Positions 28,279-52,779 of a stretch of 64,000 nucleotides of DNA are shown in pieces (the stretch's first letter is position 1; each line of letters opens with the position of its first letter). A model generated the notes under the pieces. That model was not told the DNA's origin. It searched no databases and was given only the letters and a program-made list of their open reading frames with translations. Origin of the DNA: a virus. The stretch is from IMG/VR virus record IMGVR_UViG_3300017917_002593, positions 1-64,000 of that record; one strand, written 5' to 3'. Made by a program: the position numbers and the translations under genes.

Positions 28279-29988
28279 ATGAGCTGGAAAAAGTACTTTA
28301 CCCCTGTCGATACCTCTGGAACTATGAGCCCAATTAGTGGCTCGGGTGGCGACAGACCTACTGGCTCGCGCCTTAACTATAGTTCCTACTTGCCTGATGT
28401 TTATAGCGGTCATCCAAATCGTTTAGAGCGTTACGGCCAGTACGACATGATGGACGGAGACAGCGAAGTTAACGCAGCGTTGGATATTCTTGCAGAATTC
28501 TGTACGCAACTCAATGAAGAAAATGCGACTCCATTTCAAATTTTCTTCAAAGATCAAGCAACTCCAACCGAAGTTAAGATTATTAAAAAGTATCTACAGC
28601 AATGGACTCGTTTGAATAAGTTTCAGAAGCGTATCTTTAAAATTGTAAGAAACGCATTTAAGTACGGTGATTGTTTCTTTATTAGAGATCCAGAAACTCA
28701 AGTTTGGATGTATGTAGATCCTGGTAAAGTAGATAAGATTATTGTTAATGAAAGTGACGGTAAAGTTCCTGAACAGTATGTTATCCGTGATCTGAATCCA
28801 AACTTTGTTAATCTAAGTACAACGCAAATTGCTCCAAGTGCAACCAATGCAGGACCTCCTACACCATATAGTGGCGGCGGAGGCGGTCAACGTAACATGA
28901 CCGGAACGTATCCTACAAACATTGGAAATCGTTTTGGTGTTAATCAAACACAGTGGGCTATTAATGCTGAATATGTAGTTCATCTAAGTATGAGCGAAGG
29001 AATGGATCAAAATTATCCGTTCGGTAACAGTCTATTAGAAAGTATCTTTAAGGTTTATAAGCAAAAAGAACTATTAGAAGATGCGATCATTATCTATCGT
29101 GTACAACGTGCTCCCGAGCGTAGGGTATTTTATATTGACGTTGGTAATATGCCAAGTCACTTGGCTATGAGCTTTGTTGAGCGTGTTAAAAATGAAGTAA
29201 ATCAGCGCCGTATTCCAAGCGTTACAGGTGGCGGTCAGACTGTAGTAGATTCAAGCTACAATCCATTAAGTATCAATGAAGACTATTTCTTCCCTCAAAC
29301 AAGTGAAGGTCGCGGATCTAAAGTTGAAATTCTTCCAGGTGGTACTAACTTAGGAGAAATCGATGATCTTAGATATTTTACTAATAAGTTGTTTCGTGCT
29401 TTACGCATACCTTCAAGTTATCTACCTACCGGGCCTGACGATGGAGGATCTAGCTTTAATGATGGTCGAGTTGGAACAGCCTACATCCAAGAACTTAGAT
29501 TTAACAAATACTGCGAGCGACTCCAAAGTAATTTAAACGAAGCATTTGATCTTGAGTTTAAAGCCTATCTACAGAATAAAGGCATTAACTTTGATCCTAA
29601 TGTATTTGAACTACAGTTTAATCCTCCACAAAACTTTGCAGCCTATCGTCAAACAGAAATGGATACTGCAAGGATTCAAAGTTACAGCAGTGTTGTTACA
29701 GTTCCTTACATCAGTAAGCGTTTTGCTCTCAAGCGTTTCTTAGGTCTAACTGCTGAAGAAATGGCAGAAAACGAAGAAATGTGGAAAGAAGAAAATGGTT
29801 TAAGTATCAAAGCACCAAGTGCAAGTGCTGAGTTACGTAGTAGCGGCATAACCAGCGGCGGTATGGAAAACGATGTTTCCGATTTAGGTCAGTCGGGCAC
29901 AGCACCGGAAGGCATGCCAGGAGGACCTGATCCAATGGCAGCACCAGCAGGTCCTGGCGCAGCGCCGGCAGGACAAGCACCGGCATAA
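28279..29988 (+). CDS. gp20: Portal protein gp20
   Basis: LLEDAIIIYRVQRAPERRVFYIDVGNMP, EDYFFP...GRGSKVEILPGG.NLGEIDDLRYF. Confidence 0.95.
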   Translation: MSWKKYFTPVDTSGTMSPISGSGGDRPTGSRLNYSSYLPDVYSGHPNRLERYGQYDMMDGDSEVNAALDILAEFCTQLNEENATPFQIFFKDQATPTEVKIIKKYLQQWTRLNKFQKRIFKIVRNAFKYGDCFFIRDPETQVWMYVDPGKVDKIIVNESDGKVPEQYVIRDLNPNFVNLSTTQIAPSATNAGPPTPYSGGGGGQRNMTGTYPTNIGNRFGVNQTQWAINAEYVVHLSMSEGMDQNYPFGNSLLESIFKVYKQKELLEDAIIIYRVQRAPERRVFYIDVGNMPSHLAMSFVERVKNEVNQRRIPSVTGGGQTVVDSSYNPLSINEDYFFPQTSEGRGSKVEILPGGTNLGEIDDLRYFTNKLFRALRIPSSYLPTGPDDGGSSFNDGRVGTAYIQELRFNKYCERLQSNLNEAFDLEFKAYLQNKGINFDPNVFELQFNPPQNFAAYRQTEMDTARIQSYSSVVTVPYISKRFALKRFLGLTAEEMAENEEMWKEENGLSIKAPSASAELRSSGITSGGMENDVSDLGQSGTAPEGMPGGPDPMAAPAGPGAAPAGQAPA

Positions 29989-33164: not shown

Positions 33165-34346
33165 ATGTCACAATTATTAAATGAAAGATGGTCCGAGACC
33201 AAAGAAGCTCTGCTTGAAGGCCTACAAGGTAACCGTCGTTCTTCTATGAGCGTTTGCTTAGAGAATACACGAAAGTACCTAGCTGAAAGTGCTACAGCAG
33301 GAGCTACAAGCACTGGTAATATCGCAACACTAAACCGCGTTATTCTTCCAGTTATCCGTCGTGTTATGCCGACAGTTATTGCTAACGAAATCGTTGGCGT
33401 ACAACCAATGACTGGCCCAGTTGCTCAGATCCATACTCTACGTGTTCGTTACGCTGATACCAGCGCAGGCGACAGTGTAGTAGCAGGCGATGAGGCACTA
33501 AGCCCATTCAAGTTGGCTGCTGCTTATTCTGGTAACGGTAATAACAGCGCACCAAAAGCACAAACTACCAGCGTTCTTGAAGGACAAGTTGGTAAGCGTA
33601 TGAGCATTCAAATCTTGAAGGCTCCAGTTGAAGCTAAGTCTCGTAAACTAAGCGCACGCTGGACATTCGAGGCTGCTCAAGACGCACAAGCAATGCACGG
33701 TATCGATATCGAAGCAGAAATCATGGCAGCTCTTGCTCAAGAAATCACTGCTGAAATCGACCAAGAAGTTCTTGCTTCTCTACGTGGTCTTGGCACAGTT
33801 GAACAAACTTATGACCAAGCTGCCGTATCCGGTACTGCTACATTCGTTGGTGACGAACACGCTGCTTTAGCTGTTCAGATCAACCGTGTTGCAAACTTGA
33901 TCGCTCAGCGTACACGTCGTGGTGCTGCTAACTGGGCAGTTGTTTCTAACCAGGCTCTAACGATCCTTCAGTCTGCAACAACATCCGCTTTTGCACGTAC
34001 TACAGAAGGTACATTCGAAGCACCTACAAACACTAAGTTTGTTGGTACTCTAAACAACAGCATGAAGATCTATGTTGACGCTTACCTAAGCGACACAGAC
34101 GACAACAACCAAATTCTTGTTGGTTATAAGGGACCAAGCGAAGCTGACGCTGCCGCTTTCTACTGCCCATATATTCCTCTAATGAGTTCTGGTGTTGTTC
34201 TTGATCCAGCAACATTCGAGCCAGTAGTTGGCTTCTTAACACGTTACGGCTATGTTGAGTTAACAAACACAGCATCCAGCTTAGGTAACGCTGCTGACTA
34301 CCTAGGTAAAGTTGCTATCACAGCCGCTAACGTATCTTTCCGTTAA
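33165..34346 (+). CDS. gp23: Major capsid protein gp23
   Basis: IRRVMPTVIANEIVGVQPMTGP, VEAKSRKLSARWTFEAAQD, FYCPYIPL, FLTRYG. Confidence 0.96.
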   Translation: MSQLLNERWSETKEALLEGLQGNRRSSMSVCLENTRKYLAESATAGATSTGNIATLNRVILPVIRRVMPTVIANEIVGVQPMTGPVAQIHTLRVRYADTSAGDSVVAGDEALSPFKLAAAYSGNGNNSAPKAQTTSVLEGQVGKRMSIQILKAPVEAKSRKLSARWTFEAAQDAQAMHGIDIEAEIMAALAQEITAEIDQEVLASLRGLGTVEQTYDQAAVSGTATFVGDEHAALAVQINRVANLIAQRTRRGAANWAVVSNQALTILQSATTSAFARTTEGTFEAPTNTKFVGTLNNSMKIYVDAYLSDTDDNNQILVGYKGPSEADAAAFYCPYIPLMSSGVVLDPATFEPVVGFLTRYGYVELTNTASSLGNAADYLGKVAITAANVSFR

Positions 34347-37497: not shown

Positions 37498-40400
37498 ATG
37501 GCCGTAGGTCGTATTACGGGCCCGCTCTTAGCGCAAAATTTGCTAAGAGACGGTGTCGACATAGCAGTTGAAACAGATCTGCTGTATATTGATGTTAAAA
37601 ATGGCCGTATTGGTGTAAGAACCGATATTCCCCGTACCGAACTTGATGTCAATGGCACACTTACTACAAAAGTTCTAATTGCCGATACTGCAACTATTGG
37701 TTTAGTAACCATTGAAAGCAGCACATCGAGCAGCACAATTTCTACACTGTTTGGACCGTTAAACGTTAACCCCGGTGGTAACGACTGGTTATATATCAAC
37801 AGTACTGCAAGCGTCCGAGGCGATGTTTATGCAACTGGCAACTTCTATGCCAACGGAAATATCAAGTTAGGTGATACTACATCATCTGATACAATCGAAT
37901 TATTAGGTGAGGTCCAAAGTGACATCTTGCCTTTTATCAGTAGCGGCACATTTTCTACCTATGTCAGTACCTTAACTGGTTTAACAGTAACTGACTTCTA
38001 TACCAATACTGAAATTGTTTCTGAATATAGTTTAGGTAATACAAGTAGCTATTGGCAAAACGCATATCTACAAAATGTCTTTACAAGAAAAATTGATACA
38101 GTTGGCACAGAAACCGATGTTCAATTTTTCCCAGATATTCCCAGATTAGAAAGAACTCTAAACAAGAGTGTTACAATCAACGGAGATATTCGTGTATATG
38201 GCGGAAATCCGTTAGGTACATTTCCAGTTGTAAACAACATTCTATATGTAAACGAAAACGGTAGCGATGACAATGATGGTAGGGCTATGGACGCAAGTCG
38301 TGCTTGCCGTACAATTACTGGTGCTACTCGAAGCCCTTATTTTAAACAAGGCACTATTATTAAAGTAGCTCCTGGCTACTATGCAGAAGATAACCCTATT
38401 AAGTTATTGCCATACACTTCAGTAGTGGGCGATAGTCTTCGTGCAGTTTTTGTTGAACCGTTAAACAAAACAGTAGATTTATTCCATGTAAATTCTGGTG
38501 TATATATCACTGGGATGACCATGCTAAACTTGCGCCGAGGCGAAGTTGTACGCTACGAACCGGGCGGAGCAGGCACATACACCACAGGTGCTTACTGTGT
38601 TGCGTTTCCTCCTCTATTAGAAAATCCGATCGATTTATTCCACAGTCCCTATATTCAAAACTGTACTAATCAATCTGGTCCGTGGCTGTATGACGGCACA
38701 ATGTTTGTTCCGAACCAAACAGTTCAGTTACCACTGGTAGTTGCTACTGCTACCTATGCATCCAGCACAACTACAATTACTGTAACTATTCAACCAGAAC
38801 TATCTGCCAAGCAGTTAGAAATTGGAATGGCAGTGAACGGATCTGGCATTTTGATAGAGGACGATCTTCCAATTGCATCTATTGAAAAGATCGAAAACAT
38901 TGATCCTAACTTTAGAAATGCAAAACAACTTTTAACTTCAAACAAAGATTTTATCAAAGACGAAATCATTGCTTATGTTAATACAAACTATCCTGGATTA
39001 AATTATAATCAAGATAAATGCCGCAGAGATGCTGGCTATGTTTTAGATGCTTTGATCTATGATGCAATTCTCGGCGGTAATAGAAAAATTGTTGAAGCAG
39101 GTCGTGCCTACTTTCAAGGTAACGCCAATATTTTAGGCGATGAATTAATTCCTACCATTGCAGCATTTGAAAGAATGAAAACTTTTGCATTTGCAATTGT
39201 TGCAAATACTGATCTATCTTCTATCAAGACACCGGCAAACAGCGGAATACAAATTATAGATACAAATCTAACCGGCGGAGAAATTGCACAGCCTAACATT
39301 GTTAAATTGATGGACTTGTTGATTGACATCTTAAGAAACAATGGAGGTTATGAAAATGCTGCTGCTCTATTAAATGCAAATAGAGGTTTTATTCAAGCAG
39401 AAACAGTTGCGTTTGTTAACAAAACATATGTTGGCCAACCTATTCCAAGTTTTACCTACGATAGAGCAAAATGTTTCAGAGATGTTGGATATGTTATAGA
39501 TGCAATCGCTAACGATCTTTTATATGGCGGAAACCAACAAACGGTTGCTGCCGGTGAAGCATATATTGGCGGCGCAGCGATTCCCGGAGAAGCTGACGAA
39601 ACTATTGCAGCATTCAATTACTTAGGAATGATCATTCGTGATGTAGTTTTACAAAACGAAATAAACGACGGTTACCAAACTACTGTAACTCAAGTCACTA
39701 ATTTGATAACAGGTACTAATGCGGCAATTGAGTTGATGACACGAAATATTCAAATTATCAATTCGTACATTGACGATGGCGCATTTTCTGTTCCAGTTGT
39801 TTCAAATAGCGCACAAAGTTCTATTCCAGGAATCGTTAACAGTTACAATTTAATTGTAGCTAACAAAGCATTCTTGCAACATGAAGTTGTTAACTATATT
39901 GATGTAACATTTACTAATCTTGATTTTGTCTACAACGAAGATAAGTGTGCTCGTGACACTGCTTTAATATTTGACGGATTAGTATTAGACCTTGTACATG
40001 GAGGTTCAAGTCAATCAACTTTTGCAGGCCTACAATATTGGAATCAAACTAATACTGTTATACCTGGAGAAGAAACAACCACTACTAATGCTTTTGCCTA
40101 TGCAAAAGATATTTCTAAAACTATTATCCAAGGTATTCCTTTAACAACAATTTTAGGAACATTGACTCAGTATATTAGCACAGGGTCGGACCTAACTGTT
40201 GCAAACTTACTCGGTGAAAAATTTGATACAGTTATTTCTGTAATAACAAATGGCACAGCTGGAATAACTGATTTAATTGAACCAAACGGTGATATTAACA
40301 CAACTACTCTTTATACCAGTGCTATAGATTTGTTAATAGGAAATAAAGATTTTATTGCCGACGAAGTTATTGCTTGGATTGAACAAACTAAAACTCCTGG

Positions 40401-43400
40401 CTTTACATACGACCAAACAAAGTGCAGAAGAGATGTTGGTTATGTAATTGACAGTGTAGCAATGGATCTGTTAAGAGGCGGTAACAGACAAAGTATTCAA
40501 GCTGGTGTTTACTATTACGGATATAATAGTACCAGTACTGTTCTTGTAAACGAAGTTCCGCAAACAATGGCTGCATACAAGTATATGAAGTCGTTGATTG
40601 AAAAAGTTGTTCAAAGAATTCCTGCTACAAAAACATACCAAACAGAATTTGCTCAGAATTTAGATTACGGTGCAGCAACTCTTGATGAAGCAAGAATCAT
40701 TGGAGATAACATTGATCTGATAAGGACCATTATTAGAAAAGGTCCAGCCGCAGCACCTGCTCAAGTACCGATTGGTATTGCAGTTAGCACTTCTACTAAT
40801 GTAAGTAAAGCAGCTACTCTATTAGCGGCTAACAAAGATTTTATTGTTGCAGAAGTTGTTGAATTCGTTAATAAAACATTCATCCAACCTTTCCAATTTA
40901 ATTACAACGAAGAAAAATGTTTTAGAGATGTTGGATTAATTGTCGATGCGATTGCTGGAGACATTATTAAACGCTCCAATGTTAAATCAATTGAAGCAGG
41001 TTTAGCTTATTGGGAAGGCGCAGTTAGTGTTATTGAAGGTCAGCTAAAAGAAACTGCTGGAGCTATTCAATACGCTAAGAGCATTGCATTGGATGTAATT
41101 GCTAATAATCCTGTTACAAGTTTCTATCAAGATTCTGTTCAAACAATTATTCCAGGAACAAGTTCTACTACAATGACTGTAGTAGTAAGTCAACTTATTA
41201 ACGGACAACTTGGCGGCGGAGAAGTTGCAAGAGATTTAGTAGATAGTAACTTTAACGCCATCACAACAATTTTACAAAATGGTCCTGCTTACTCACCTTT
41301 TAGTACAGACAGTACTCTGACACAATTTGTTGTTACCTTAACTACTTCGACTGTCAAGGCTGCATCTAATGATATTCTGTACTTTGGTGAAACTACAGTT
41401 TATCCAATTGAAGATAAAAACTTGCCAGGCATGTGGACTGAAAACGGAGAAGCTGATCGCAGAATTGATCCAAATGGTTCAGGTGGTGGTGCATTGGTAG
41501 ATGGAAATGCTCCTTCGAGAAGAAGTCCAATTCAGTCGTTCGTTTTTGATGCGTTTACTCAAATTACTCAAGGCGGACGAGGCATACACATTATCAATGA
41601 AGGGTATGCACAGTTAGTTTCTGTGTTTACAATTTTCTGTAATGTTGCTGTTGAAACAGATAGCGGTGGTATTGCATCTATTACAAACTCTAACAATAAC
41701 TTTGGAGACATTTGTTTACAATCTAAAGGTTATGGTAAGAGGAAGTTTGGCGGAACAGTTTATAATCCGGAAAATATTGCCTATAACGAACTAACAAACG
41801 AATTCGAAGCTAACGAATATTATCCTCAAGGGTATTTCCCAACTCGACAGCAAGTTTGTGTGTTTGTTCCAGATCCTTTAAATAGGCCGCACATCAGTTT
41901 AGTTATGGAAGTTGTTCCTCCTGATCAATATGTTAACTACGACGGTGTGGTTGTTCCTTACATCAATGAACAAGGTTATCCAGGATTCTTAACTGCGGTC
42001 ATTAATACAGCAACATTAACAACAGGATCTTTTGTTGTTAGCGGTATTGATGTAACAGGCGCAAGCATTGGTCAAACTGTTTACATTAAAGATCAGTTTG
42101 GTTACGAAGCAGCCGATAACGGAGAAGGTGCAAGATATATTTCGACAGGAACTACTATTGTCGACATTAGCTACCAGTCAATTACATTAAGTAATCCAAT
42201 TAACTTTGGTGGAGGCGAATACGGCAATCCGTTCTACTTTGATATCTACTGCTGTGGAAATGCTTACTACAATGTCTTAACAAGTAAGCCAGCAGTAAGT
42301 CCATACCCGATTGGGCAAAGTAAAATCATTGGTCAAGAAACTGAAACTATTGATGCAATTGATCACTTAAAAGAAATAACTAACTTTGTAGTAGCTAACA
42401 TTGCTTATACAGGAACGTATACTACTGCTGTTCCGCAATCTATTAACACAGAATTTATTGGAGGAGCAAGTGCAATACCTTTCATCAACGAAAGATTAGA
42501 TATTATTTCTAATGTAATTCTTTCTGGTCCTCAAGCAGCACCCGAAGTTAGAACAACAGGTACAAGAGCAGAGAACTATGCAAGTGCTATTGAATTACTA
42601 AATCAAAATAAGATCTTTATTCAGAATGAAGTAGTTGCATATGTAGACGATACATTTGGTGGGTTTGTTTATGATGAAGCCAAGTGCCAGCGTGATGTTG
42701 GATTAATTATTGACAGTATTGCAATGGATATGTTGTACGATGATACAACACAAAGTACCTTTGCTGGCCTTCAATACTGGAATCAAACTTCATATGTAGA
42801 TGGCATTGGAGGTCAAATTACTACAACTACGGCAGCTATTGCTTATGCAAAATCTCTTGCACTATCTGTTACAAGTAACAATGTAGTAATCGGGCAAAGA
42901 TTCGATACTATCTTAGAAATACTACAACTTGGCACAGCAAATGTAAGTAACATTGTTGTTGCTAACGGATATAGAACCACTGATCCAGGTGCGCTCGCTG
43001 ACTATGCTGCACTACAATCAAATAAGGCTTCAATTCAAAGTCAGGTAATTTCTTGGATCAGTAGTAACTATCCAAGTTTTACATATGATCAAGCTAAGTG
43101 CTCGAGAGATATTGGTTACATCATTGACAGCGTTTCTATTGATTTAATCCACGGTGGTAATAGACAAAGTATTCAAGCTGGTGTTTACTATTACGGTTTC
43201 GATCAAGGTAGTAGTGCTATTGCTGGAGAGATTCCGCAAACTGCGGCAGCTTATAATTTTATTAAGAGTATTGTAGGTGATATTGTTACAGGTACTCCAA
43301 TTAGTCCTAAGTATCAAAATACAGTAACTCAAGTAACTAATCTTCTACCTGGAACTTCTGTTGAAGCAGCAGCTCTACAATCTAAGATTAGTGTTATTAC

Positions 43401-44067
43401 AAATATTTTAGATAACGGACCGACTGCTGCCGAAGAAAGAAGAGCAATAAAGCAAACAATGAACACCAGCGTTGATGTTCAACGAGCATTTAACTTATTA
43501 AATGCAAACAAAGACTTTATCAAAGCTGAAGTAATTGCCTACATTGCAAATGAATTTGGCGGATTCCAGTACAACAAACAAAAATGTAGAAGAGACGTTG
43601 GTCTAATGATCGATGCGTTAGTTGCTGACTTAGCTACTGGAGGAAACTTCCGTGCAGTTGAAGCGGCTAAAACTTACTACACAAGAGAAGGTACTTATCA
43701 TATTGTTACTGTTGAAGACAACGTAAGAAATCCTTTATTGTTTGTTGACGGTAGCACTGTAAACTTCTATCAGAGAAGCTATCAATCTGCATCTGGATAC
43801 CTATTCGAATACTGCGGAGCAGGTACACAGTACGGTGCATTGCCTCAGGTAGGTAGAGTTGATCCTGTCCAAAGCAAGGAAGTAGTTCAGTTAAATAATG
43901 GTAAGGTGTTCTTTACTTCCACTGACCAGAACGGCGATTTCCGTATTGGACCAACGTTAGTAATTAGTCAGGCAACTGGTGTGTTGTCAGGCAGAACATT
44001 TGAAAAGAGTTTATTTGCTCAGATGACACCATTCATCTTAGCAGTTGAAGCAGGTGGCGGCGAATAA
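37498..44067 (+). CDS. Giant virion fibre-like protein P1 (2189 aa): pectin-lyase-like beta-helix interrupted by 8 phycobiliprotein-like helical repeats
   Basis: LYVNENGSDDNDG...ACRTI...IKVAPGYYAE beta-helix entry motif; 8 x Y[DN]xxKCxRD repeats. Confidence 0.75.
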   Translation: MAVGRITGPLLAQNLLRDGVDIAVETDLLYIDVKNGRIGVRTDIPRTELDVNGTLTTKVLIADTATIGLVTIESSTSSSTISTLFGPLNVNPGGNDWLYINSTASVRGDVYATGNFYANGNIKLGDTTSSDTIELLGEVQSDILPFISSGTFSTYVSTLTGLTVTDFYTNTEIVSEYSLGNTSSYWQNAYLQNVFTRKIDTVGTETDVQFFPDIPRLERTLNKSVTINGDIRVYGGNPLGTFPVVNNILYVNENGSDDNDGRAMDASRACRTITGATRSPYFKQGTIIKVAPGYYAEDNPIKLLPYTSVVGDSLRAVFVEPLNKTVDLFHVNSGVYITGMTMLNLRRGEVVRYEPGGAGTYTTGAYCVAFPPLLENPIDLFHSPYIQNCTNQSGPWLYDGTMFVPNQTVQLPLVVATATYASSTTTITVTIQPELSAKQLEIGMAVNGSGILIEDDLPIASIEKIENIDPNFRNAKQLLTSNKDFIKDEIIAYVNTNYPGLNYNQDKCRRDAGYVLDALIYDAILGGNRKIVEAGRAYFQGNANILGDELIPTIAAFERMKTFAFAIVANTDLSSIKTPANSGIQIIDTNLTGGEIAQPNIVKLMDLLIDILRNNGGYENAAALLNANRGFIQAETVAFVNKTYVGQPIPSFTYDRAKCFRDVGYVIDAIANDLLYGGNQQTVAAGEAYIGGAAIPGEADETIAAFNYLGMIIRDVVLQNEINDGYQTTVTQVTNLITGTNAAIELMTRNIQIINSYIDDGAFSVPVVSNSAQSSIPGIVNSYNLIVANKAFLQHEVVNYIDVTFTNLDFVYNEDKCARDTALIFDGLVLDLVHGGSSQSTFAGLQYWNQTNTVIPGEETTTTNAFAYAKDISKTIIQGIPLTTILGTLTQYISTGSDLTVANLLGEKFDTVISVITNGTAGITDLIEPNGDINTTTLYTSAIDLLIGNKDFIADEVIAWIEQTKTPGFTYDQTKCRRDVGYVIDSVAMDLLRGGNRQSIQAGVYYYGYNSTSTVLVNEVPQTMAAYKYMKSLIEKVVQRIPATKTYQTEFAQNLDYGAATLDEARIIGDNIDLIRTIIRKGPAAAPAQVPIGIAVSTSTNVSKAATLLAANKDFIVAEVVEFVNKTFIQPFQFNYNEEKCFRDVGLIVDAIAGDIIKRSNVKSIEAGLAYWEGAVSVIEGQLKETAGAIQYAKSIALDVIANNPVTSFYQDSVQTIIPGTSSTTMTVVVSQLINGQLGGGEVARDLVDSNFNAITTILQNGPAYSPFSTDSTLTQFVVTLTTSTVKAASNDILYFGETTVYPIEDKNLPGMWTENGEADRRIDPNGSGGGALVDGNAPSRRSPIQSFVFDAFTQITQGGRGIHIINEGYAQLVSVFTIFCNVAVETDSGGIASITNSNNNFGDICLQSKGYGKRKFGGTVYNPENIAYNELTNEFEANEYYPQGYFPTRQQVCVFVPDPLNRPHISLVMEVVPPDQYVNYDGVVVPYINEQGYPGFLTAVINTATLTTGSFVVSGIDVTGASIGQTVYIKDQFGYEAADNGEGARYISTGTTIVDISYQSITLSNPINFGGGEYGNPFYFDIYCCGNAYYNVLTSKPAVSPYPIGQSKIIGQETETIDAIDHLKEITNFVVANIAYTGTYTTAVPQSINTEFIGGASAIPFINERLDIISNVILSGPQAAPEVRTTGTRAENYASAIELLNQNKIFIQNEVVAYVDDTFGGFVYDEAKCQRDVGLIIDSIAMDMLYDDTTQSTFAGLQYWNQTSYVDGIGGQITTTTAAIAYAKSLALSVTSNNVVIGQRFDTILEILQLGTANVSNIVVANGYRTTDPGALADYAALQSNKASIQSQVISWISSNYPSFTYDQAKCSRDIGYIIDSVSIDLIHGGNRQSIQAGVYYYGFDQGSSAIAGEIPQTAAAYNFIKSIVGDIVTGTPISPKYQNTVTQVTNLLPGTSVEAAALQSKISVITNILDNGPTAAEERRAIKQTMNTSVDVQRAFNLLNANKDFIKAEVIAYIANEFGGFQYNKQKCRRDVGLMIDALVADLATGGNFRAVEAAKTYYTREGTYHIVTVEDNVRNPLLFVDGSTVNFYQRSYQSASGYLFEYCGAGTQYGALPQVGRVDPVQSKEVVQLNNGKVFFTSTDQNGDFRIGPTLVISQATGVLSGRTFEKSLFAQMTPFILAVEAGGGE

Positions 44068-44078
44068 AGGAGAAATAA

Positions 44079-44465
44079 ATGGCATTAATTCCATTAAACA
44101 CGTTTAAAACAAAAACAAAAGTATTAGATACTAATTCAACATCAACAGTATACGTTGCACCAATTGGCGTAACTTCTATTGTACTAATGGCTCAAGTTGC
44201 CAATGTTGATCCGGCAGCGGCACATACTATTACCTTTAGTCATCATAGGAGATTTAGAGTGCTCCCTGATGCCCAAGGAAATAACGCTCAAGATCCAAAC
44301 ATTACAACTGAGTTGGTGCAAAACTTTGAAGTCCCACCTAATGATAGTGCAGCATTAATTACAGGCAAGATGATTCTCGAAAGTCAAGATAGTATTAGAG
44401 CCAGTGCTGACGCGAACGGTGTCATGAAATTAGTTCTAAGTATTCTTGAAACAGCCAACAATTAA
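44079..44465 (+). CDS. Small structural/adaptor protein, paralog of 36311..36628
   Basis: SD AAGGAG; TVYVAPIGVTSIVL..VAN...KMILESQDSIRASAD. Confidence 0.65.
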   Translation: MALIPLNTFKTKTKVLDTNSTSTVYVAPIGVTSIVLMAQVANVDPAAAHTITFSHHRRFRVLPDAQGNNAQDPNITTELVQNFEVPPNDSAALITGKMILESQDSIRASADANGVMKLVLSILETANN

Positions 44466-44478
44466 TTAAGAGAAAGCA

Positions 44479-47400
44479 ATGCCACGTTTATTAAGTAATA
44501 GAAAACCAGTAGCAAGACCATCTGAGTTAAAAGAAAACAGATGGGAATATTTAAATCTACAGCAGGCTCAGCCTGCATTGGGTCCTGCACCTGAAGCAAA
44601 TACCGGTTTTACTCTGGAAACAGATGAAAACGGCAAAGTTACCTATACTAATACACTTGGCAAACTTGCATTTGACGAGCAAGTCATTTCCGGTACATTA
44701 CCGGGAGTGGATATTGAAATTGATTCTTCTATCAATAACGGAGAAATTGTCTTAACTCCATTACAGACTGCAAGAATTGCAGGTAATTTATCTGTTCAAG
44801 GCGACGAGATTGTTGATGGAAACTTTACTGTAAGAGGTATTCCTGAAGGTACTGCACCTTTAGTAAGTAATACACTTTATGTAACTCCAGACGGTAATGA
44901 TGAAAATGACGGAACAGCAATGGATAGAACTCGTGCTTGCCGTACAATCAGCGGTGCTGTTCGTAGTCCGTTTTATCAACCAGGTACTGCTATTAAAGTT
45001 ATGGCAGGTACATATTTTGAAGACAACCCAATTCCTTTAAAGCCTTATACATCTGTTGTTGGCAACGACTTGCGTACAACGTTTGTTGAACCTCTAAACA
45101 AAGATTTAGATTTGTTCCACGTTAACTCTGGTGTTTATATTGCACAGATGCAGATGCGTAATTTACGCAGAGGAAGCGTTGAACGATATGCACCAGGAGG
45201 AGCAGGAACATACACTACAGGTGCTTACTGTGTTGCGTTTCCTCCTAACTTAGAAAACCCTATCGACGTTTACTACTCACCGTACATTCAAAACTGTACC
45301 AACCAATCTGGACCTTGGTTAAAAGATGGAACCATGATGGTTCCTAACCAAACCGTTCAAATTCCGTTGGCAGCAGGTACCAGTACATGGACTGCCGGAG
45401 TTGATCAAATCACAGTAACGTTATACACTGGTACTGTAGTAGTCGGTATGGCAGTTAATGATGCAGCGAATGAAGGTTATCGCAATGCTCAATTGTTGTT
45501 AAAGAAAAATAGAGAATTCTTACAAAAGCAAACTGTTGCATACGTTGAAGATGCTTATCCTGATCTTGTTTATGATCAAGCCAAATGCTACAGAGATGTT
45601 GGCTACATTGTCGATGCGGTTGCAGGCGATGCAAGATTTGGTGGAAACAAACGTAGTATCGAAGCAGGCCTTTCCTACTGGAGAGGAAACACTTCATTAA
45701 TTGCAGGAGAACAAGGCGAAACTGCTGCGGCAATTAACTATCTACGAGATATTTCTTTACAAGTTATCACCAACACCACAGTTACTAATATTTTTAACAC
45801 TTTGTCAAATCAGGTATTTGATTTGGCATTAGATGGAGGGTCAGTAGTATCGACTCGTGCAACAGACAGTTACAATTTAATTACTGAAATTCTGTTAAAC
45901 GGAGAAACATCAGCTCCTGATCAGCCTACACCTGATTTATTGGGATTAATCTACCCAACTGGATTGAGTCCTAATGATGTTAATGTTGCATCAACTGTAA
46001 CAGCAGTTACACAATTAACAACAAACACATATCTTGTTACATTAAGTACCTCGACTGTAAGTCCAAGTGACAATGCAACAATTTATTTTGGTTATACTAC
46101 AACATATCCATATCTCGATGCAGATGTGCCGCCGGAATGGTCAACTAATTTAGCAGAAGGCTATGTTGACCGCAGATTAGATCCTATCGGATCTGGTGGC
46201 GGAGCACTGGTTGACGGTAACGCACCGAGCTTAAGAAGCCCTATTCAATCGTTCGTATTTGATGCGTTTACACAGTTGAACCAGGGCGGTATTGGTATTC
46301 ACATTATTAACAACGGCTACGCACAGCTTGTATCTGTGTTTACGATTATGTGTAGTCAAGCTGTTATTGTTGAGAATGGTGGTATTGCATCTATTACTAA
46401 CTCTAACGCAAACTTTGGTGATACATGTTTAACTGCAAAAGGTTTAGGTAAACTTGCTTTCCAAGGTTTCGTAGTTAACCCTGCTTTTCCAACTAATGTA
46501 CCTAACGGCGAATATTATCCATTAGGTTACTGGCCTCAGAAACAGGTCATGGAAGTCTTTATTCCAAGTGATAGAGATCGTCCTCACATTGGCCAAGTTA
46601 TGGAAGTGGTTCCTCCTGATACATATCTCAATTTTGAAGGAGAACGTGTACCATTTATCAACGAAGCAGGCTATCCAGGATACTTAATTGCAACAGTCAA
46701 CACCAATACTATTAGTACTGGTAGTTTTATTATCAATGATGTTGATGTTACTGGAGTATCTGTAGGTCATACTTTATATGTTCGAGATGTATTAGGAAAT
46801 GAAGTACATCCTGAAACAGGTATTCCTTATGTTACTACTGGAACACAAGTTGTTGACGTTAACTATAGACAAATTGTATTAGATCGACCAATCTTGGCCG
46901 GCTATACAGATGCATTAAATCCAAGTTATTTTAATTTATATTTCTGCGGTAACGCCTATTACACAGTATTATCGAGTAACATTGATCCTACTCTTGCATC
47001 AACAGTTACTACTGAAGTAACTTTAGTTGCAGGGCAAGAAACAACAACATCTTTAGCAGTTAGCTATGCTAAAAATTTAGCTCTTCGTGTAATTCAAAAC
47101 ACTCCTATTAATGGATTTGTCTACAATCAAGCAAAATGCAAAAGAGATACTGGATTAATTGTTGATGCACTGGCAGTAGACCTCTTGCACCCAACTTCAG
47201 AACTTAGCCAAAGTAATTTTGCCGGCTTGCAATATTGGAATCAAGAAAATTATGTCGGCACAATTGCAAATGAAATTACAACAACTACAAATGCTGTTCA
47301 ATTTGTAAAAGAATTGGCAATGGAAATTGTTCAAGGTATTACTACCGGAACAAGATATCAGAGTACAGTTACACAGAATATTGGTCTTCCGTTAGCATCT

Positions 47401-50400
47401 TCAGTTGAAGCAGCAATTATTTCCAATGATTTTGATGTTATCATTGATATCCTTGTTGATGGTGTTGCAGGAGTAACCGATAAGATCATTCCAAACGGCG
47501 AACAAACTTCCGATGAAAATACAGCAAGAGCCTATTCGTTGCTCACTGCTAACAAAGCCTATATTCAAGCAGAAGCTGTAGCATTTGTTGAGTATACAAA
47601 AACTCCGGGCTTTACTTATGATTCTGCAAAATGCTATAGAGATGTTGGCTATATGGTTGACAGTGTTGCGTTTGACTTGCTACATCCTAACGGAAGTGTT
47701 CCAAGTAACAGACAGGCAATTCAAAGTGGAGTTTACTACTATGGATACATCAGCACAAGCACATCTATTGTTGGTGAAATCGTTCAGACAACTGCGGCCT
47801 ACAACTATATTAAAGATTTAGTTCCATACATTGTTAAAGGAATTACAACTTCGACATATCAGACTTATATTGATCAAGTGACTGATTTAACTCCTGGCAC
47901 AGATGCCGAAGTTAACGAAATCCAATCTTATATTGATCATATTACTAATGTTATTAATGTTGGTCCTGCCGCTGCCAGGGTTAAAGTACCTGTTAGCTTG
48001 ACACAGTCAACTGATCCTAATGTTTATAACGCATACAGAATGTTAAATGCAAATAGAGCATTTATTCAAGAATCTGTTATTGCTTACATTAACAAAACTT
48101 ACGACTCTGGAACATATCAGTCTGTTTACCCGCAAGTATTTGATCAAACATTAACTGGAGGTGTTGATGCTGTTCAAAGCCTTGGAGAAAAATTTGACAT
48201 CATTTCTGGCATCATTATCAATGGCGCAGATAGTAGTCCTGAAATTATTCGTCCAAGACAATATGTTGACTCAAATCAAAATATTCTAAATGCTAAAAAG
48301 TTACTTGAAAAGAATAGATTGTTCATCCAAGCAGAAACTGTAGCGTTCGTTGACAGTATCTGGCCAAGCAAGTTTAGCTATGATCCTGCTAAGTGCAGTC
48401 GCGACACTGGATTAATTGTTGATGCCCTTGCACAAGATTTGTTATTCAATGGTACAAGCCAAAGTACATTTGCAGGTATTCAATATTGGAATCAAGGGTT
48501 AACCGTTATACCTGGCGAACAAACAACAACTACCAATGCTGTCAAGTACTTGAAGTCTGTTGCACAGGATGTTATTTTAAACAAACAACAAAGATACAAG
48601 TATCAAAGTACAGTTACTCAAGTTGTTAGCACAATAACCAGTTCAACTACTGCTACAAGTCTATCTCTTGGAACAAAATTTGACACAATTATTAATATTT
48701 TAGAAACTGGCACAGACGGAATTACTGATAAAATTGTTCCTAACAGTTTAGATCAGTCTACTTCTTCTGCTGTTCTTGCTGCCTATAACTTACTACAGGC
48801 AAATAAAGAATATCTACAACATGAAACGGTTGCTTGGGTAGAAGCCAATGCTAACTTTAACTACGATCAAGTAAAGTGTGCTCGAGATACTGGTCTAATA
48901 GTTGACAGCATCGCTTTTGATATTTTATATCCAACAGCAACAGACAGTCAAAGTAATTTTGCCGGTCTGCAATATTGGAATCAAAGCAACTATGTTGGTA
49001 CTATTGCTAACGAAATTACCACTACAACTAATGCAATTACACATATCAGTTCTATTGCACAGAAGATTGTAGTCGGAGATACCAGCGGAACACGCTATCA
49101 AAATACTGTAACTCAAACAACTTCTACTGCGACTGGTATTGTAGGAGATGCAGTTGTAGTTGGTACAAACTTTGGAGTGATTCTAAATATTCTTTCCACA
49201 GGTACAGCAGGTGTTACAGATATTATTGTACCAAACGGCAGAAGAAGTATTACAACTTCCACAGTTAACGCTTATAATTTATTGGTTGCAAATAGATCGT
49301 ACCTTGTAGCAGAAGCTATTGCTTTTGTTGAAGATACAAAAACAGCCGGATTTAATTACGATCAAACTAAGTGTGCAAGAGATGTTGGCTACATGGTCGA
49401 CAGCGTAGCCTTTGACTTGTTACATGGCGGCAACAAACAGAGTGTACAAAGCGGAGTTCTCTACTACGGATATGACAGTACTTCAACTTCTATTCCAAAT
49501 GAGATTCCTCAGACCACTGCGGCTTATAATAGAATTAGAGAAATACTACCAAGAATCTTGTCTGGTGTAGAAATTTCTCCAAGTCAAGGGAACACAACCA
49601 AACAGATTACCTACATGTTGCCAGTCAACAATGCTACAATACTATCTGCACAGGCAAAGGTTGACAAGATTACAAGAATTATTAACAACGGACCAAGTGC
49701 CGCAAGTGAACTAACTCCAATTAGTTTAACTCCAAGCTCTGATGCAAATGCAGATCGTGCCTATGATCTATTAGTAGCAAATCGAGATTTTATCAAAGAC
49801 GAAATTATTGCCTATATCAATAGTACCTTTACTGGATTTGTCTACGATAAAGCTAAGTGCTTTAGAGATGTTGGCTATATGGTTGACAGTGTAAGTTTTG
49901 ATATACTTTACGGCGGTAATAGACAAAGCATTCAAAGCGGTGTCTACTATTACGGATATCAAGAAGATAGCAGTGCTATTGCTGGAGAAATTCCTCAAAC
50001 AACAGAAGCCTACAACTTTATTGAAAAGATTGTAGGAGACATTGTCACAGGAACATTGATAACTAATCCTCAACAGGCTTCTGTTCCGCAAGTTACTAAC
50101 TTGAGCTTTACTTATAACCAAAACAAGTGCTCAAGAGACACAGGAATTCTTGTTGATAGTTTTATTACTGATTTACTATTCAACGAAAACGGTTACACAC
50201 AAAGTAATTTCTCTGGTTTACAATATTGGAATCAGAATGGTTACACAGGATCTATTGCAAGTGAAATTACTACAACAACTAACGCAGTTAGATATCTAAG
50301 AAGCCTTGCTGAGCAAATTGTTATTAACGGCACATCTACTGCAACTGTAGTAAGATATTCTACAACTGCAAGCCAAGTTACTAACTTAACTACTGCAACT

Positions 50401-52779
50401 TACGATCAATTGTACAGAGTTAGAAAAGATTTTAATGTAATTGTTGATATCTTAACAACAGGCACAAGCGGAGTAACTGACAAGGTTGTAGCAAACAGCA
50501 TTGAACCTGTATCTAATGATGCAGTAAATGCCTACGAATTGCTAATTGCTAACAAACAATATCTACAAGAGCAAGTAATTGCCTATGTTGAAAGTACTAA
50601 GACTGCTGAGTTTGAATATGACATGTCTAAGTGCTATCGCGATGTTGGATATATTGTAGACAGTGTAGCATTTGACATCAAGTACGGTGGAAATAGGCAA
50701 GCTATTCAAAGCGGTGTTTACTATTACGGATTCTCTACATCTACTTCTGCTATTGCAGGAGAAATTGATCAAACAATTGCAGCATACACAAGATTAAAAG
50801 AAATTCTTCCAGCTATTGTAACCAATACTGCGATTGCTAAGAGTCCAAATAATACACTAACTCAGGTAACAAACTTAACAACTGCTACATCAGCAGAAGG
50901 TATTGAGTTAGAAAACATGGTTGATTTAATTACAGGTATTATCACAACGGGTCCGTCTGTTGCAGAAGTTCAACAACCTGTAAGTTTAACAGTATCTTCT
51001 TCAACATCTGTAACTGCTGCTGCCGAAATTTTAGTTGCAAACAGAAACTTTATTGTTGAAGAAGTTGTTAACTATATTAACTATGTACACTTAGTTGGTA
51101 CAGAGACAGAAGCACAGGCTATTAAAAATAATGTTAATTTAATTAATAACATTATTGAATATGGACCTGATGAAGTTTCTGTTAAGGAACCAATTGCATT
51201 AGCAAGAAGTACCGGTACTGCTGTAGTTAATGCTGCTAAACTATTGGCTGCAAACAGAGATTTTATTCGTGCAGAAACAATTGCCTTTATCAACAACACT
51301 TATAACACTGGCTTCTTATATGACAAGAGCAAGTGCCGTAGAGATACCGGCCTAATTGTTGATAGTCTTGCGTTTGATTTACTCTACAACGGACTAACAG
51401 AAAGTACATTTGCTGGTTTACAATATTGGAACCAAGATACTTATACAGGCACAATTAAAGGAGAAATTACAACTACAACTAATGCTATTAGATACCTAAA
51501 AGAATTAGTACAAGATGTAGTTTTAAATGTGCCAGTTGCTGCAACTACTGGAAATGTAACTTCTCAAGTTATTAACTTAACAACCAGTACAGCAGGTATT
51601 GCAGGTGTTCTTGCTGGTAATGTTGACCTAATGTTAGATATTTTAACAAATGGAACAGCAGGAGTAACAGATCGAATTATACCAAACGGTGTTCGTACAA
51701 CTGCAACTGATAGAGTTAGCGCATACGATCTATTGCAAGCAAACAAGACATTCTTACAAAACGAAGTTGTTGCAAGAATTGATCTTGACAATACTCAGTT
51801 TGAATATGATAGAGCAACTTGCAGACGAGACCTCGGTTATATCATTGACAGTTTAAGTTTTGATATAGTACACGGCGGTAACAAACAGAGTATCACTTCC
51901 GGAGTTTACTACTACGGATTTAATGCTAACGATACTGCTATTGATGACCAAATTCCTCAAACAACTGCGGCCTACAACTATATTAGAGAATTAGTTGATA
52001 GAATTATTAGAGGACAAGCTGTTCCGGTAACATATCAAAAGAAAGTTCCGCAAGTTATTACAACAAACGTCGGAACAACTTTAGAAGTTACCAGTGTAAG
52101 AACTTCAATTGATAATATTACAAATATTATTAATAATGGCCCGTCAGTAGCTCCTACAAAACAACCAATTAGTTTAACTGCAAGTACCAGCACAGATGTT
52201 GTTAATGCATTTAATTTATTGTTAGCAAATAGAGCATTTATACAAGCCGAAGTTATATCTTACATCGATACAGTCTTTACTGATGCTACTAACTACAACA
52301 AAGACAAGTGCTTCCGAGACATGGGCGCAATTGTTGATGCTGTAGGTTATGATTTAATTTACGGTGGAAACTATAACTCTGTCAATACTGGTAATGGTTA
52401 TTTCCTACGCAAAGGACAATACCACTTAGTAAGACTTGAACAAAACGTAACAGATCCTACACTGTTCATTGATGGAGCAACTGTAAGATTCTATCAACAG
52501 AGTTATATTTCTGCTTCTGGTTATCTGTTTGAATATGTAGGTGCTGGTACACAGTACGGTGCTCTACCTCAGGTTGGTACTGCTGACCCGCAACAGACCA
52601 AAGAAGTAGTTCAGTTAAATAATGGTAAAGTATTCTTTACAAGTACTGACCAGAATGGTGACTTCCGCATTGGTCCGACACTTGTTATCAGTCAAAGTAC
52701 TGGTATCTTAAGTGGACGAACATTCCAAAAGTCGCTGTATGCGGAAATGACTCCGTTTATCTTGGTAGTAGGAGCATAA
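44479..52779 (+). CDS. Giant virion fibre-like protein P2 (2766 aa), paralog of P1, with 12 phycobiliprotein-like repeats
   Basis: Same beta-helix segments and near-identical C-terminus as P1; 12 x CxRD repeats. Confidence 0.75.
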   Translation: MPRLLSNRKPVARPSELKENRWEYLNLQQAQPALGPAPEANTGFTLETDENGKVTYTNTLGKLAFDEQVISGTLPGVDIEIDSSINNGEIVLTPLQTARIAGNLSVQGDEIVDGNFTVRGIPEGTAPLVSNTLYVTPDGNDENDGTAMDRTRACRTISGAVRSPFYQPGTAIKVMAGTYFEDNPIPLKPYTSVVGNDLRTTFVEPLNKDLDLFHVNSGVYIAQMQMRNLRRGSVERYAPGGAGTYTTGAYCVAFPPNLENPIDVYYSPYIQNCTNQSGPWLKDGTMMVPNQTVQIPLAAGTSTWTAGVDQITVTLYTGTVVVGMAVNDAANEGYRNAQLLLKKNREFLQKQTVAYVEDAYPDLVYDQAKCYRDVGYIVDAVAGDARFGGNKRSIEAGLSYWRGNTSLIAGEQGETAAAINYLRDISLQVITNTTVTNIFNTLSNQVFDLALDGGSVVSTRATDSYNLITEILLNGETSAPDQPTPDLLGLIYPTGLSPNDVNVASTVTAVTQLTTNTYLVTLSTSTVSPSDNATIYFGYTTTYPYLDADVPPEWSTNLAEGYVDRRLDPIGSGGGALVDGNAPSLRSPIQSFVFDAFTQLNQGGIGIHIINNGYAQLVSVFTIMCSQAVIVENGGIASITNSNANFGDTCLTAKGLGKLAFQGFVVNPAFPTNVPNGEYYPLGYWPQKQVMEVFIPSDRDRPHIGQVMEVVPPDTYLNFEGERVPFINEAGYPGYLIATVNTNTISTGSFIINDVDVTGVSVGHTLYVRDVLGNEVHPETGIPYVTTGTQVVDVNYRQIVLDRPILAGYTDALNPSYFNLYFCGNAYYTVLSSNIDPTLASTVTTEVTLVAGQETTTSLAVSYAKNLALRVIQNTPINGFVYNQAKCKRDTGLIVDALAVDLLHPTSELSQSNFAGLQYWNQENYVGTIANEITTTTNAVQFVKELAMEIVQGITTGTRYQSTVTQNIGLPLASSVEAAIISNDFDVIIDILVDGVAGVTDKIIPNGEQTSDENTARAYSLLTANKAYIQAEAVAFVEYTKTPGFTYDSAKCYRDVGYMVDSVAFDLLHPNGSVPSNRQAIQSGVYYYGYISTSTSIVGEIVQTTAAYNYIKDLVPYIVKGITTSTYQTYIDQVTDLTPGTDAEVNEIQSYIDHITNVINVGPAAARVKVPVSLTQSTDPNVYNAYRMLNANRAFIQESVIAYINKTYDSGTYQSVYPQVFDQTLTGGVDAVQSLGEKFDIISGIIINGADSSPEIIRPRQYVDSNQNILNAKKLLEKNRLFIQAETVAFVDSIWPSKFSYDPAKCSRDTGLIVDALAQDLLFNGTSQSTFAGIQYWNQGLTVIPGEQTTTTNAVKYLKSVAQDVILNKQQRYKYQSTVTQVVSTITSSTTATSLSLGTKFDTIINILETGTDGITDKIVPNSLDQSTSSAVLAAYNLLQANKEYLQHETVAWVEANANFNYDQVKCARDTGLIVDSIAFDILYPTATDSQSNFAGLQYWNQSNYVGTIANEITTTTNAITHISSIAQKIVVGDTSGTRYQNTVTQTTSTATGIVGDAVVVGTNFGVILNILSTGTAGVTDIIVPNGRRSITTSTVNAYNLLVANRSYLVAEAIAFVEDTKTAGFNYDQTKCARDVGYMVDSVAFDLLHGGNKQSVQSGVLYYGYDSTSTSIPNEIPQTTAAYNRIREILPRILSGVEISPSQGNTTKQITYMLPVNNATILSAQAKVDKITRIINNGPSAASELTPISLTPSSDANADRAYDLLVANRDFIKDEIIAYINSTFTGFVYDKAKCFRDVGYMVDSVSFDILYGGNRQSIQSGVYYYGYQEDSSAIAGEIPQTTEAYNFIEKIVGDIVTGTLITNPQQASVPQVTNLSFTYNQNKCSRDTGILVDSFITDLLFNENGYTQSNFSGLQYWNQNGYTGSIASEITTTTNAVRYLRSLAEQIVINGTSTATVVRYSTTASQVTNLTTATYDQLYRVRKDFNVIVDILTTGTSGVTDKVVANSIEPVSNDAVNAYELLIANKQYLQEQVIAYVESTKTAEFEYDMSKCYRDVGYIVDSVAFDIKYGGNRQAIQSGVYYYGFSTSTSAIAGEIDQTIAAYTRLKEILPAIVTNTAIAKSPNNTLTQVTNLTTATSAEGIELENMVDLITGIITTGPSVAEVQQPVSLTVSSSTSVTAAAEILVANRNFIVEEVVNYINYVHLVGTETEAQAIKNNVNLINNIIEYGPDEVSVKEPIALARSTGTAVVNAAKLLAANRDFIRAETIAFINNTYNTGFLYDKSKCRRDTGLIVDSLAFDLLYNGLTESTFAGLQYWNQDTYTGTIKGEITTTTNAIRYLKELVQDVVLNVPVAATTGNVTSQVINLTTSTAGIAGVLAGNVDLMLDILTNGTAGVTDRIIPNGVRTTATDRVSAYDLLQANKTFLQNEVVARIDLDNTQFEYDRATCRRDLGYIIDSLSFDIVHGGNKQSITSGVYYYGFNANDTAIDDQIPQTTAAYNYIRELVDRIIRGQAVPVTYQKKVPQVITTNVGTTLEVTSVRTSIDNITNIINNGPSVAPTKQPISLTASTSTDVVNAFNLLLANRAFIQAEVISYIDTVFTDATNYNKDKCFRDMGAIVDAVGYDLIYGGNYNSVNTGNGYFLRKGQYHLVRLEQNVTDPTLFIDGATVRFYQQSYISASGYLFEYVGAGTQYGALPQVGTADPQQTKEVVQLNNGKVFFTSTDQNGDFRIGPTLVISQSTGILSGRTFQKSLYAEMTPFILVVGA

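Follow-up and report, generated by a model that had tools for sequence, protein, structure and literature searches.

The phage auxiliary genes hemO, pcyX, pebS, pcyA and cpeT encode enzymes, not acceptors (PMC11480375; PMC3037559; PMC2984593); the purpose of the bilin that phages make has been called unclear, including in phages of phycobilisome-free hosts (PMC11480375; PMC2984593), and the substrate of phage cpeT, cpeESR being absent, has been called unresolved (PMC3037559). Among the cellular relatives of phycobiliproteins, bilin biosynthesis-associated globins (BBAGs) that carry a CXRD motif attach bilins without lyases (Rockwell, Martin and Lagarias 2023; PMC10151467). Here we describe two giant tail-fibre-type proteins, P1 and P2, encoded in a window of 64,000 nucleotides (the whole stretch of DNA analysed, positions 1 to 64,000 of the IMG/VR virus record IMGVR_UViG_3300017917_002593), which together with homologs in other phages, including the very lineages that carry the above auxiliary genes, contain tandem phycobiliprotein-like units with a C-x-R-D motif. 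On the strength of sequence comparisons and predicted structures we regard it as nearly certain that these units are true phycobiliprotein homologs with a retained bilin-attachment site. In the literature we found no paper describing phycobiliprotein-like domains in phage virion proteins, nor one proposing a phage-encoded bilin acceptor in the virion.

P1 contains eight and P2 12 copies of the C-x-R-D motif, for the most part at a spacing of 138-168 amino acids (aa), against a mean of 0.03-0.04 per protein and a maximum of 2 in shuffled versions of the two proteins (5000 each). An alignment of the 20 segments around it defines a helical unit of about 160 residues, in which not only the Cys, Arg and Asp of the motif are invariant in 20/20 units, but also a Tyr at Cys-5, an Asp at Cys+9, an Asp at Cys+14 and a Tyr at Cys+30. 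An earlier note on this DNA had claimed eight and 12 units with an invariant Cys, Arg and Asp, and the motif count, the shuffles and the alignment all confirm it; the motif that it cited at 43090 is likewise present, with its Cys codon at 43099. The last units of both proteins, unit 8 of P1 and unit 12 of P2, retain the first half alone, before the C-terminal domain, while within P2 units 2 and 8 are devoid of the first two helices and unit 7 ends after about 120 residues. A profile search further recovered two unit fragments without the Cys, at 42316-42558 and 48016-48105. The two open reading frames (ORFs) and their units are given below; following the site, units of subtype B read F-[AS]-G-[LI]-Q-Y-W-N-Q and those of subtype A G-V-x-Y-Y-G (39826-52185).

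37498-44067, plus strand: P1, giant tail-fibre-type protein with eight phycobiliprotein-like units; uninterrupted ORF, 2189 aa.
38899-39351, plus strand: P1 unit 1; Cys codon 39019; the singly modelled unit (AlphaFold2 pLDDT 89.5; PF00502 20.1 bits alone).
39352-39825, plus strand: P1 unit 2; Cys codon 39472.
39826-40302, plus strand: P1 unit 3, subtype B; Cys codon 39946.
40303-40788, plus strand: P1 unit 4, subtype A; Cys codon 40423.
40798-41283, plus strand: P1 unit 5; Cys codon 40918.
42316-42558, plus strand: Cys-less fragment of P1, C-terminal half of a unit (profile positions 78-157).
42565-42978, plus strand: P1 unit 6, subtype B, short; Cys codon 42685.
42979-43464, plus strand: P1 unit 7, subtype A; Cys codon 43099.
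43465-43704, plus strand: P1 unit 8, first half only, running into the C-terminal domain; Cys codon 43585.
44479-52779, plus strand: P2, giant tail-fibre-type protein with 12 phycobiliprotein-like units; uninterrupted ORF, 2766 aa.
45466-45951, plus strand: P2 unit 1; Cys codon 45586.
47113-47502, plus strand: P2 unit 2, subtype B, without the first two helices; Cys codon 47137.
47512-47997, plus strand: P2 unit 3, subtype A; Cys codon 47632.
48016-48105, plus strand: Cys-less fragment of P2, first helix of a unit (profile positions 2-31).
48274-48756, plus strand: P2 unit 4, subtype B; Cys codon 48394.
48757-49242, plus strand: P2 unit 5, subtype B; Cys codon 48877.
49252-49737, plus strand: P2 unit 6, subtype A; Cys codon 49372.
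49738-50103, plus strand: P2 unit 7, subtype A, ending early (about 120 residues); Cys codon 49858.
50101-50493, plus strand: P2 unit 8, subtype B, without the first two helices; Cys codon 50128.
50512-50997, plus strand: P2 unit 9, subtype A; Cys codon 50632.
51214-51699, plus strand: P2 unit 10, subtype B; Cys codon 51334; first member of the B-A pair model (pLDDT 89.8, pTM 0.88).
51700-52185, plus strand: P2 unit 11, subtype A; Cys codon 51820; second member of the B-A pair model.
52189-52434, plus strand: P2 unit 12, first half only, running into the C-terminal domain; Cys codon 52309.

Searches with Pfam profiles place P1 within the phycobiliprotein family, the whole protein matching PF00502 at 36.3 bits (E 6.9e-9; cut-off 22.2). 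The signal is weaker for single units, with unit 1 at 20.1 bits falling just under the cut-off and 3/20 units reaching E<1, and the same search of P2 gave no match. When the units were pooled, a 15-unit profile retrieved phycocyanin alpha chains exclusively from the PDB, and a 106-unit profile, built from the window and IMG/VR, retrieved 36 chains at E<=1, 34 of which are phycocyanin alpha. Both HMMER and hhalign align the unit Cys with Cys84 of phycocyanin alpha and the Arg and Asp with residues 86 and 87, and the PDB profile searches place the GG on 102-103. In hhalign comparisons the 106-unit alignment matched 105 CpcA sequences from cyanobacterial genomes with Prob 94.6% and E 7e-8 (unit columns 6-62 against CpcA 39-106), and 90 CpcB sequences with a Prob of only 18%. 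Structure prediction points the same way: AlphaFold2, run without templates, models unit 1 with a predicted local distance difference test score (pLDDT) of 89.5 and a predicted template modelling score (pTM) of 0.86, and the roughly 50 best Foldseek matches of this model are all phycobiliproteins, with template modelling (TM) scores of 0.56-0.74. In an all-against-representatives structural search its first eight matches are phycobiliprotein or ApcE chains (Z 13.4-16.2; root-mean-square deviation, rmsd, 2.0-2.6 Å), followed lower down by the bilin-binding photocobilins (Z 12.4) and heme globin sensors (Z at most 11.8). The predicted fold, with helices A, B, E, F, G and H, is of the phycobiliprotein globin type, the top eight solved matches of the wide search and the top 50 of a second one all being phycobiliproteins (Z 12.9-16.2, rmsd 1.8-2.6 Å). 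A model of a consecutive B-A pair (324 aa; pLDDT 89.8) likewise has phycobiliproteins as its sole structural matches, and its pTM of 0.88 suggests that adjacent units are predicted to be held in a fixed mutual orientation. As the structural alignments start at phycobiliprotein residue 31-34, and structure and sequence alignments together set the unit start at residue 31-39, the X/Y helices are absent. Hence, both the phycobiliprotein-type globin reading of the earlier note and its remark that the units lack these helices are borne out, the former by the Pfam match, the PDB profile searches, hhalign, the AlphaFold2 models and their structural matches.

Conservation was examined in 1250 units from 150 representative proteins. 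The Cys is retained in 96%, the Arg in 96% and the Asp of the motif in 99% of these, the Asp at Cys+14 in 100% and the Tyr at Cys+30 in 98%, and 81% of the units contain exactly one Cys. The Arg or the Asp is missing in 20/1195 Cys-bearing units (1.7%) versus 31/55 Cys-less units (56%), an odds ratio for joint loss of 76 with p 2e-33 (uncorrected for ancestry), and the Asp at Cys+14 is kept in 55/55 of the Cys-less units. The Cys, Arg and Asp are therefore kept or lost together, indicating that the triad acts as one site, distinct from the residues of the fold; on sequence grounds, such joint decay is what a ligand site would show, and it is evidence of an indirect kind. Separately, we observed that the Asp at Cys+14 and the Tyr at Cys+30 (profile positions 54 and 70) are better conserved than the Cys and are without a counterpart in CpcA, where position 98 is a Cys.

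Both proteins match tail-fibre profiles in the PHROG collection, P1 those of the tail fiber phrog_5342 (E 1e-114) and the short tail fiber phrog_4527 (E 7e-94), and P2 those of phrog_4527 (E 7e-108) and phrog_5342 (E 2e-101). Their N-terminal, central and C-terminal domains are common to cyanophage fibre proteins; the C-terminal domains and the ORF between the two genes are as follows.

43744-44049, plus strand: P1 C-terminal domain, common to cyanophage fibre proteins (phrog_3442 and phrog_17885, residues 2083-2184; 40-45% identity to cyanophage proteins).
44079-44465, plus strand: ORF between P1 and P2, 128 aa (phrog_1276, of unknown function).
52474-52767, plus strand: P2 C-terminal domain, of the same kind as that of P1 (phrog_3442, residues 2666-2763).

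The ORF at 44079-44465 was considered as a lyase and dropped, as it is without a Pfam match and its sole PHROG is of unknown function. The genes for P1 and P2 lie downstream of those for the portal (28279-29985) and the major capsid protein (33165-34343) and upstream of other structural genes and of one for a baseplate wedge protein (57844 onward). This position in a tail/baseplate module, along with the profile matches, places them among the fibre/baseplate giants of PHROG 5342, 4527 and 17885, and supports the earlier proposal that they are virion fibre proteins. By analogy to the unit-bearing Syn9 gp101, annotated as 'structural protein; putative fiber', P1 and P2 are probably part of the virion. 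The window also contains a gp5-like spike gene at 11424-13700 on the minus strand, whose 758-aa product combines a Phage_base_V OB domain, a DUF2345 domain and a GH19 chitinase/lysozyme-like domain, and resembles a central spike of the gp5 type that includes a hydrolase of the cell wall.

The record from which the window comes is 86 kb long and is estimated to be about 24% complete. A megablast search of the region against phages gave no match. The capsid protein of this phage is 68-70% identical to those of the Rak2/GAP32/CBB-type jumbo phages (about 350 kb), and its closest relatives are thus not the T4-like cyanophages. Relatives of this phage include G001 (364 kb, 100% complete, with a major capsid protein 81% identical), G002 (328 kb, 87% identical) and G040 (215 kb), and neither psbA nor hli was found in the near-complete ones. 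On the capsid protein and the lack of psbA and hli in these relatives we reject an identity as a T4-like cyanophage, and taking the DNA for that of a cyanophage is likewise not supported. Judged by its sequence, the source is an uncultured aquatic phage of the Rak2/GAP32 jumbo type, with a genome of about 350 kb. In passing, we noted that a 186-kb IMG/VR cyanophage (G005:C1:171043-171916) has a psbA match in three pieces with in-frame TGA/TAG between them, which fits an intron or a broken gene.

The units are widespread. A profile search of 1.84 billion representative proteins returned 1473 hits at E<=1e-3, of which 666 reach E<=1e-30; a single protein holds as many as 38 units, and the longest has 6382 aa. 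About half of the close homologs have a precomputed PF00502 match, and all are unnamed or 'hypothetical'. A degenerate DNA pattern for the motif found 120 loci in IMG/VR, with true units in every one. Against GenBank phages P1 matched 378 records, all named Synechococcus, Cyanophage, Prochlorococcus, Marine or uncultured, and none of these is a cultured Rak2-type phage of a heterotroph. In BFVD the matches come from Synechococcus phages and uncultured Caudovirales and comprise tail, fibre and structural proteins, and units also occur in Syn9 gp101 (6076 aa), S-PM2, P-HM1/2, P-SSM4 and others. Phages have captured an antenna-protein fold, which is multiplied as much as 38-fold within one protein and has spread over unrelated phage lineages. 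With o standing for units of neither subtype, the order in P1 is ooBAoBAo and in P2 oBABBAABABAo, and the alternation of B and A is also seen in close relatives. We rejected the idea that the two subtypes are the analog of the alpha and beta chains: most units in the family are neither A nor B, and hence the alternation reflects a lineage-specific duplication of a two-unit cassette. Some of these B-A cassettes were apparently inserted within broken units (P2 unit 2 and units 7/8). In the S-PM2 record (AJ630128.1 165928-177267) about 15 tRNA features lie inside the giant ORF S-PM2p218 under one locus tag, probably a coordinate error of the deposited annotation.

In G001, G002 and G040, which have 11, 19 and 9 units respectively, a heme oxygenase (HO) gene adjoins one that encodes ferredoxin-dependent bilin reductase (FDBR), and G003, a genome of 271 kb from another lineage, has the HO-FDBR cassette together with CpeT. 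A close relative of this FDBR is found on 376 IMG/VR contigs, and all five of those that are at least 100 kb long have units. Among 18 cultured cyanophages, units occur along with CpeT in 11 and on their own in two, CpeT on its own in none, and neither in five (P-SSM2, P-SSP7, S-SM2, S-SSM7 and S-TIM5), with a one-sided Fisher p of 0.0025, or 0.018 without the two phages that are not T4-like. For comparison, Sullivan et al. recorded a CpeT-like gene in 12/16 of their genomes. FDBR is present in 5/5 unit-bearing Prochlorococcus myophages and in no unit-bearing Synechococcus phage; the Synechococcus hosts of unit-bearing phages are bilin-rich. The cassette is far from the fibre genes in G001, where units lie at 52-68 kb and 206-208 kb and the cassette at 287 kb. 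Directly beside HO/FDBR we observed phage-encoded homologs of CsgF and CsgG, parts of the outer-membrane curli secretion channel, at L205 2280-3853 in G001 and L206 5788-7166 in G002 (CsgG scores of 177 and 139 bits), with an HSP20 gene also there in G001. In the Pelagibacter phage Mosig (MT647606.1 39650-43977) the HO/FDBR pair is flanked by neck-protein genes and four 2OG-Fe(II) oxygenase genes, in a run that also holds genes for an endonuclease V and a ferrochelatase.

The best single explanation for these observations, which we advance tentatively, is that each unit binds a bilin at its Cys. Under this proposal P1 and P2 would be tail-fibre or baseplate-associated virion proteins whose shafts are rigid tandem arrays of unit domains, each of which would bind a linear tetrapyrrole at its Cys during virion assembly in the infected cell. 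In the jumbo clade the bilin would come from the phage's own HO and FDBR, as carried by the near-complete relatives, and attachment, with no lyase found, might be autocatalytic as in the CXRD-bearing BBAG globins; indeed, without CpeT or CpeS, lyase-independent attachment would be needed in this clade if the units are chromophorylated. In the cyanomyoviruses the bilin would come from the host, with the phage CpeT as the likely lyase. A released particle might then display tens to hundreds of chromophores on its fibres. The use of such a pigment is the weakest step of the scheme: a light signal gating adsorption is the most attractive option, and stabilization of the domains or shielding from light are alternatives. 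That the particle is pigmented and the fibre bilin array is a virion photoreceptor making adsorption light-dependent appears to us rather unlikely, albeit worth stating. According to the literature, S-PM2, P-HM1 and P-HM2 require light to adsorb, in S-PM2 independently of host photosynthesis, and adsorption in darkness is reported for P-SSM2 and the podovirus P-SSP7. The unit counts are concordant in 5/5 cases, with nine in S-PM2, five each in P-HM1 and P-HM2 and none in P-SSM2 and P-SSP7; as P-HM1 and P-HM2 are near-identical, this is an anecdote and not a test.

Several points weigh against bilin binding, beginning with the fact that everything said about it here is inferred. No HO, bilin reductase, CpeT or psbA gene is present in the window's own record; the earlier note had seen no lyase or bilin-synthesis gene in the window, which stands, although the record is again only a quarter or so of a genome. 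Canonical phycobiliproteins normally require lyases, and neither the CpeT and CpeS lyases nor psbA or hli were found in the jumbo clade. The sequence similarity to phycobiliproteins does not extend past residue 60 or so, the Cys helix is preceded by a loop of about seven residues versus about 17 in CpcA, and with the X/Y helices also missing the pocket may differ from that of phycobiliproteins. The co-occurrence tests are confounded by shared ancestry, the lineages not being independent. Mosig has the closest cultured homolog of the FDBR (49.6% identity), with HO adjacent, and no units, and a reductase without units is also found in P-SSM2 and S-SSM7. We therefore rejected the general rule that the HO-FDBR cassette exists for the units: these phages indicate that bilin genes do not predict units, though the sampled unit bearers always have a bilin source, and the bilin of Mosig, which is without phycobiliprotein-like units, must serve something else. 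Finally, we found no report of colored cyanophage particles in the literature.

Some of these points favor what we see as the most serious, if unlikely, alternative: structural reuse, in which a captured domain was multiplied as a rigid helical block for fibres without any chromophore, the C-x-R-D being kept for folding or packing. The missing lyase in the jumbo clade, the shortened loop and lost helices, and HO-FDBR in phages without units all sit well with it, as do the fixed packing predicted for consecutive units (over the 324 residues of the modelled pair), the frequency of repeat arrays in fibres, and the fact that the most conserved positions, the Asp at Cys+14 and the Tyr at Cys+30, are outside the triad. 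Nevertheless, the phycobiliprotein residues Cys84, Arg86 and Asp87 serve the bilin and have no known role in the fold (established knowledge; PMC10151467), and the phage triad is intact in about 94% of the 1250 units, whose source proteins share less than 50% identity. Its decay is that of a block and never extends to the Asp at Cys+14, which is the signature of a ligand site and not of a packing motif.

An improbable alternative is that the Cys has another chemistry, for example cross-linking the chains of a trimeric fibre by a disulfide or thioether, or binding a metal, with the Arg and Asp tuning its reactivity. The single Cys of most units makes a disulfide within the unit impossible and leaves inter-chain bonds possible, in keeping with the oxidizing medium around virion proteins. 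However, the Cys shares both its K-C-x-R-D-x-G-Y context and its helix with the bilin Cys of CpcA, models and alignments point to no partner residue, and the constant bilin source of unit bearers and the pairing of units with CpeT would go unexplained. We see equally poor prospects for non-covalent tetrapyrrole binding, or for the binding of a host ligand or protein (as a sink or as phycobiliprotein mimicry) without a virion pigment: the globin/phycobiliprotein fold is a general tetrapyrrole binder, with photocobilins and heme sensors among the matches, and BBAG-2 proteins bind biliverdin without a CXRD (PMC10151467), but a non-covalent binder has no need of an invariant Cys, phycobilisomes are intracellular and beyond the reach of a fibre, and the tail-fibre architecture and genomic position speak against such a role.

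If the particle is indeed pigmented and its bilin array a virion photoreceptor, the acceptor lacking so far for phage-made bilins and the substrate lacking for phage CpeT would both have a name, and the light-dependent adsorption of cyanophages, including what senses the light, would be explained. Three published puzzles, namely the purpose of the phage bilin, the target of cpeT and the light sensor of adsorption, would become directly testable with existing phage isolates, and a virion with a photoreceptor or a pigment would be new to phage biology. Should the domains prove empty, they still stand as a case of domain capture.

Among the known systems, the BBAG proteins (PMC10151467) offer a parallel as non-antenna relatives of phycobiliproteins, some with CXRD, that occur in genomes with HO and FDBR and attach bilins by themselves. 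They differ, by a comparison based on their description only, in being single-domain cellular proteins encoded beside FDBR, whereas the phage units share the genome with HO/FDBR and are far from the cassette, whose neighbors are CsgF, CsgG and HSP20. The fibre proteins of cyanomyoviruses (Syn9 gp101, S-PM2p218 and P-HM1 PHM1_097) contain the same units, numbering 3, 9 and 5 per genome, and have terminal domains in common with P1 and P2; they have fewer units per protein and come from T4-like genomes with psbA and cpeT, in contrast to the window's phage with its Rak2-type capsid protein and relatives devoid of psbA, hli and cpeT. With phycobiliproteins such as CpcA the units share the globin-type fold (Z up to 16.2, rmsd 2.2 Å over 140 residues) and the K-C-x-R-D-x-G-Y...GG motif at the Cys84 site, and their profiles match CpcA specifically. 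Phycobiliproteins, however, are free subunits of about 165 aa, whereas the phage units come in up to 38 tandem copies in fibres of 2000-6000 aa, and lie outside the cpc/apc/cpe operons, in a phage tail module without a phycobilisome context. The core-membrane linker ApcE, in which bilin attachment is autocatalytic, resembles the phage proteins in having a phycobiliprotein-like domain within a large multidomain protein and ranks with the best structural matches (4xxi_A, Z 14.8; 7eyd and 7sc7, Z 14), but it has one such domain with the Cys at another position, whereas the phage proteins have many, each built around the canonical Cys84 site.

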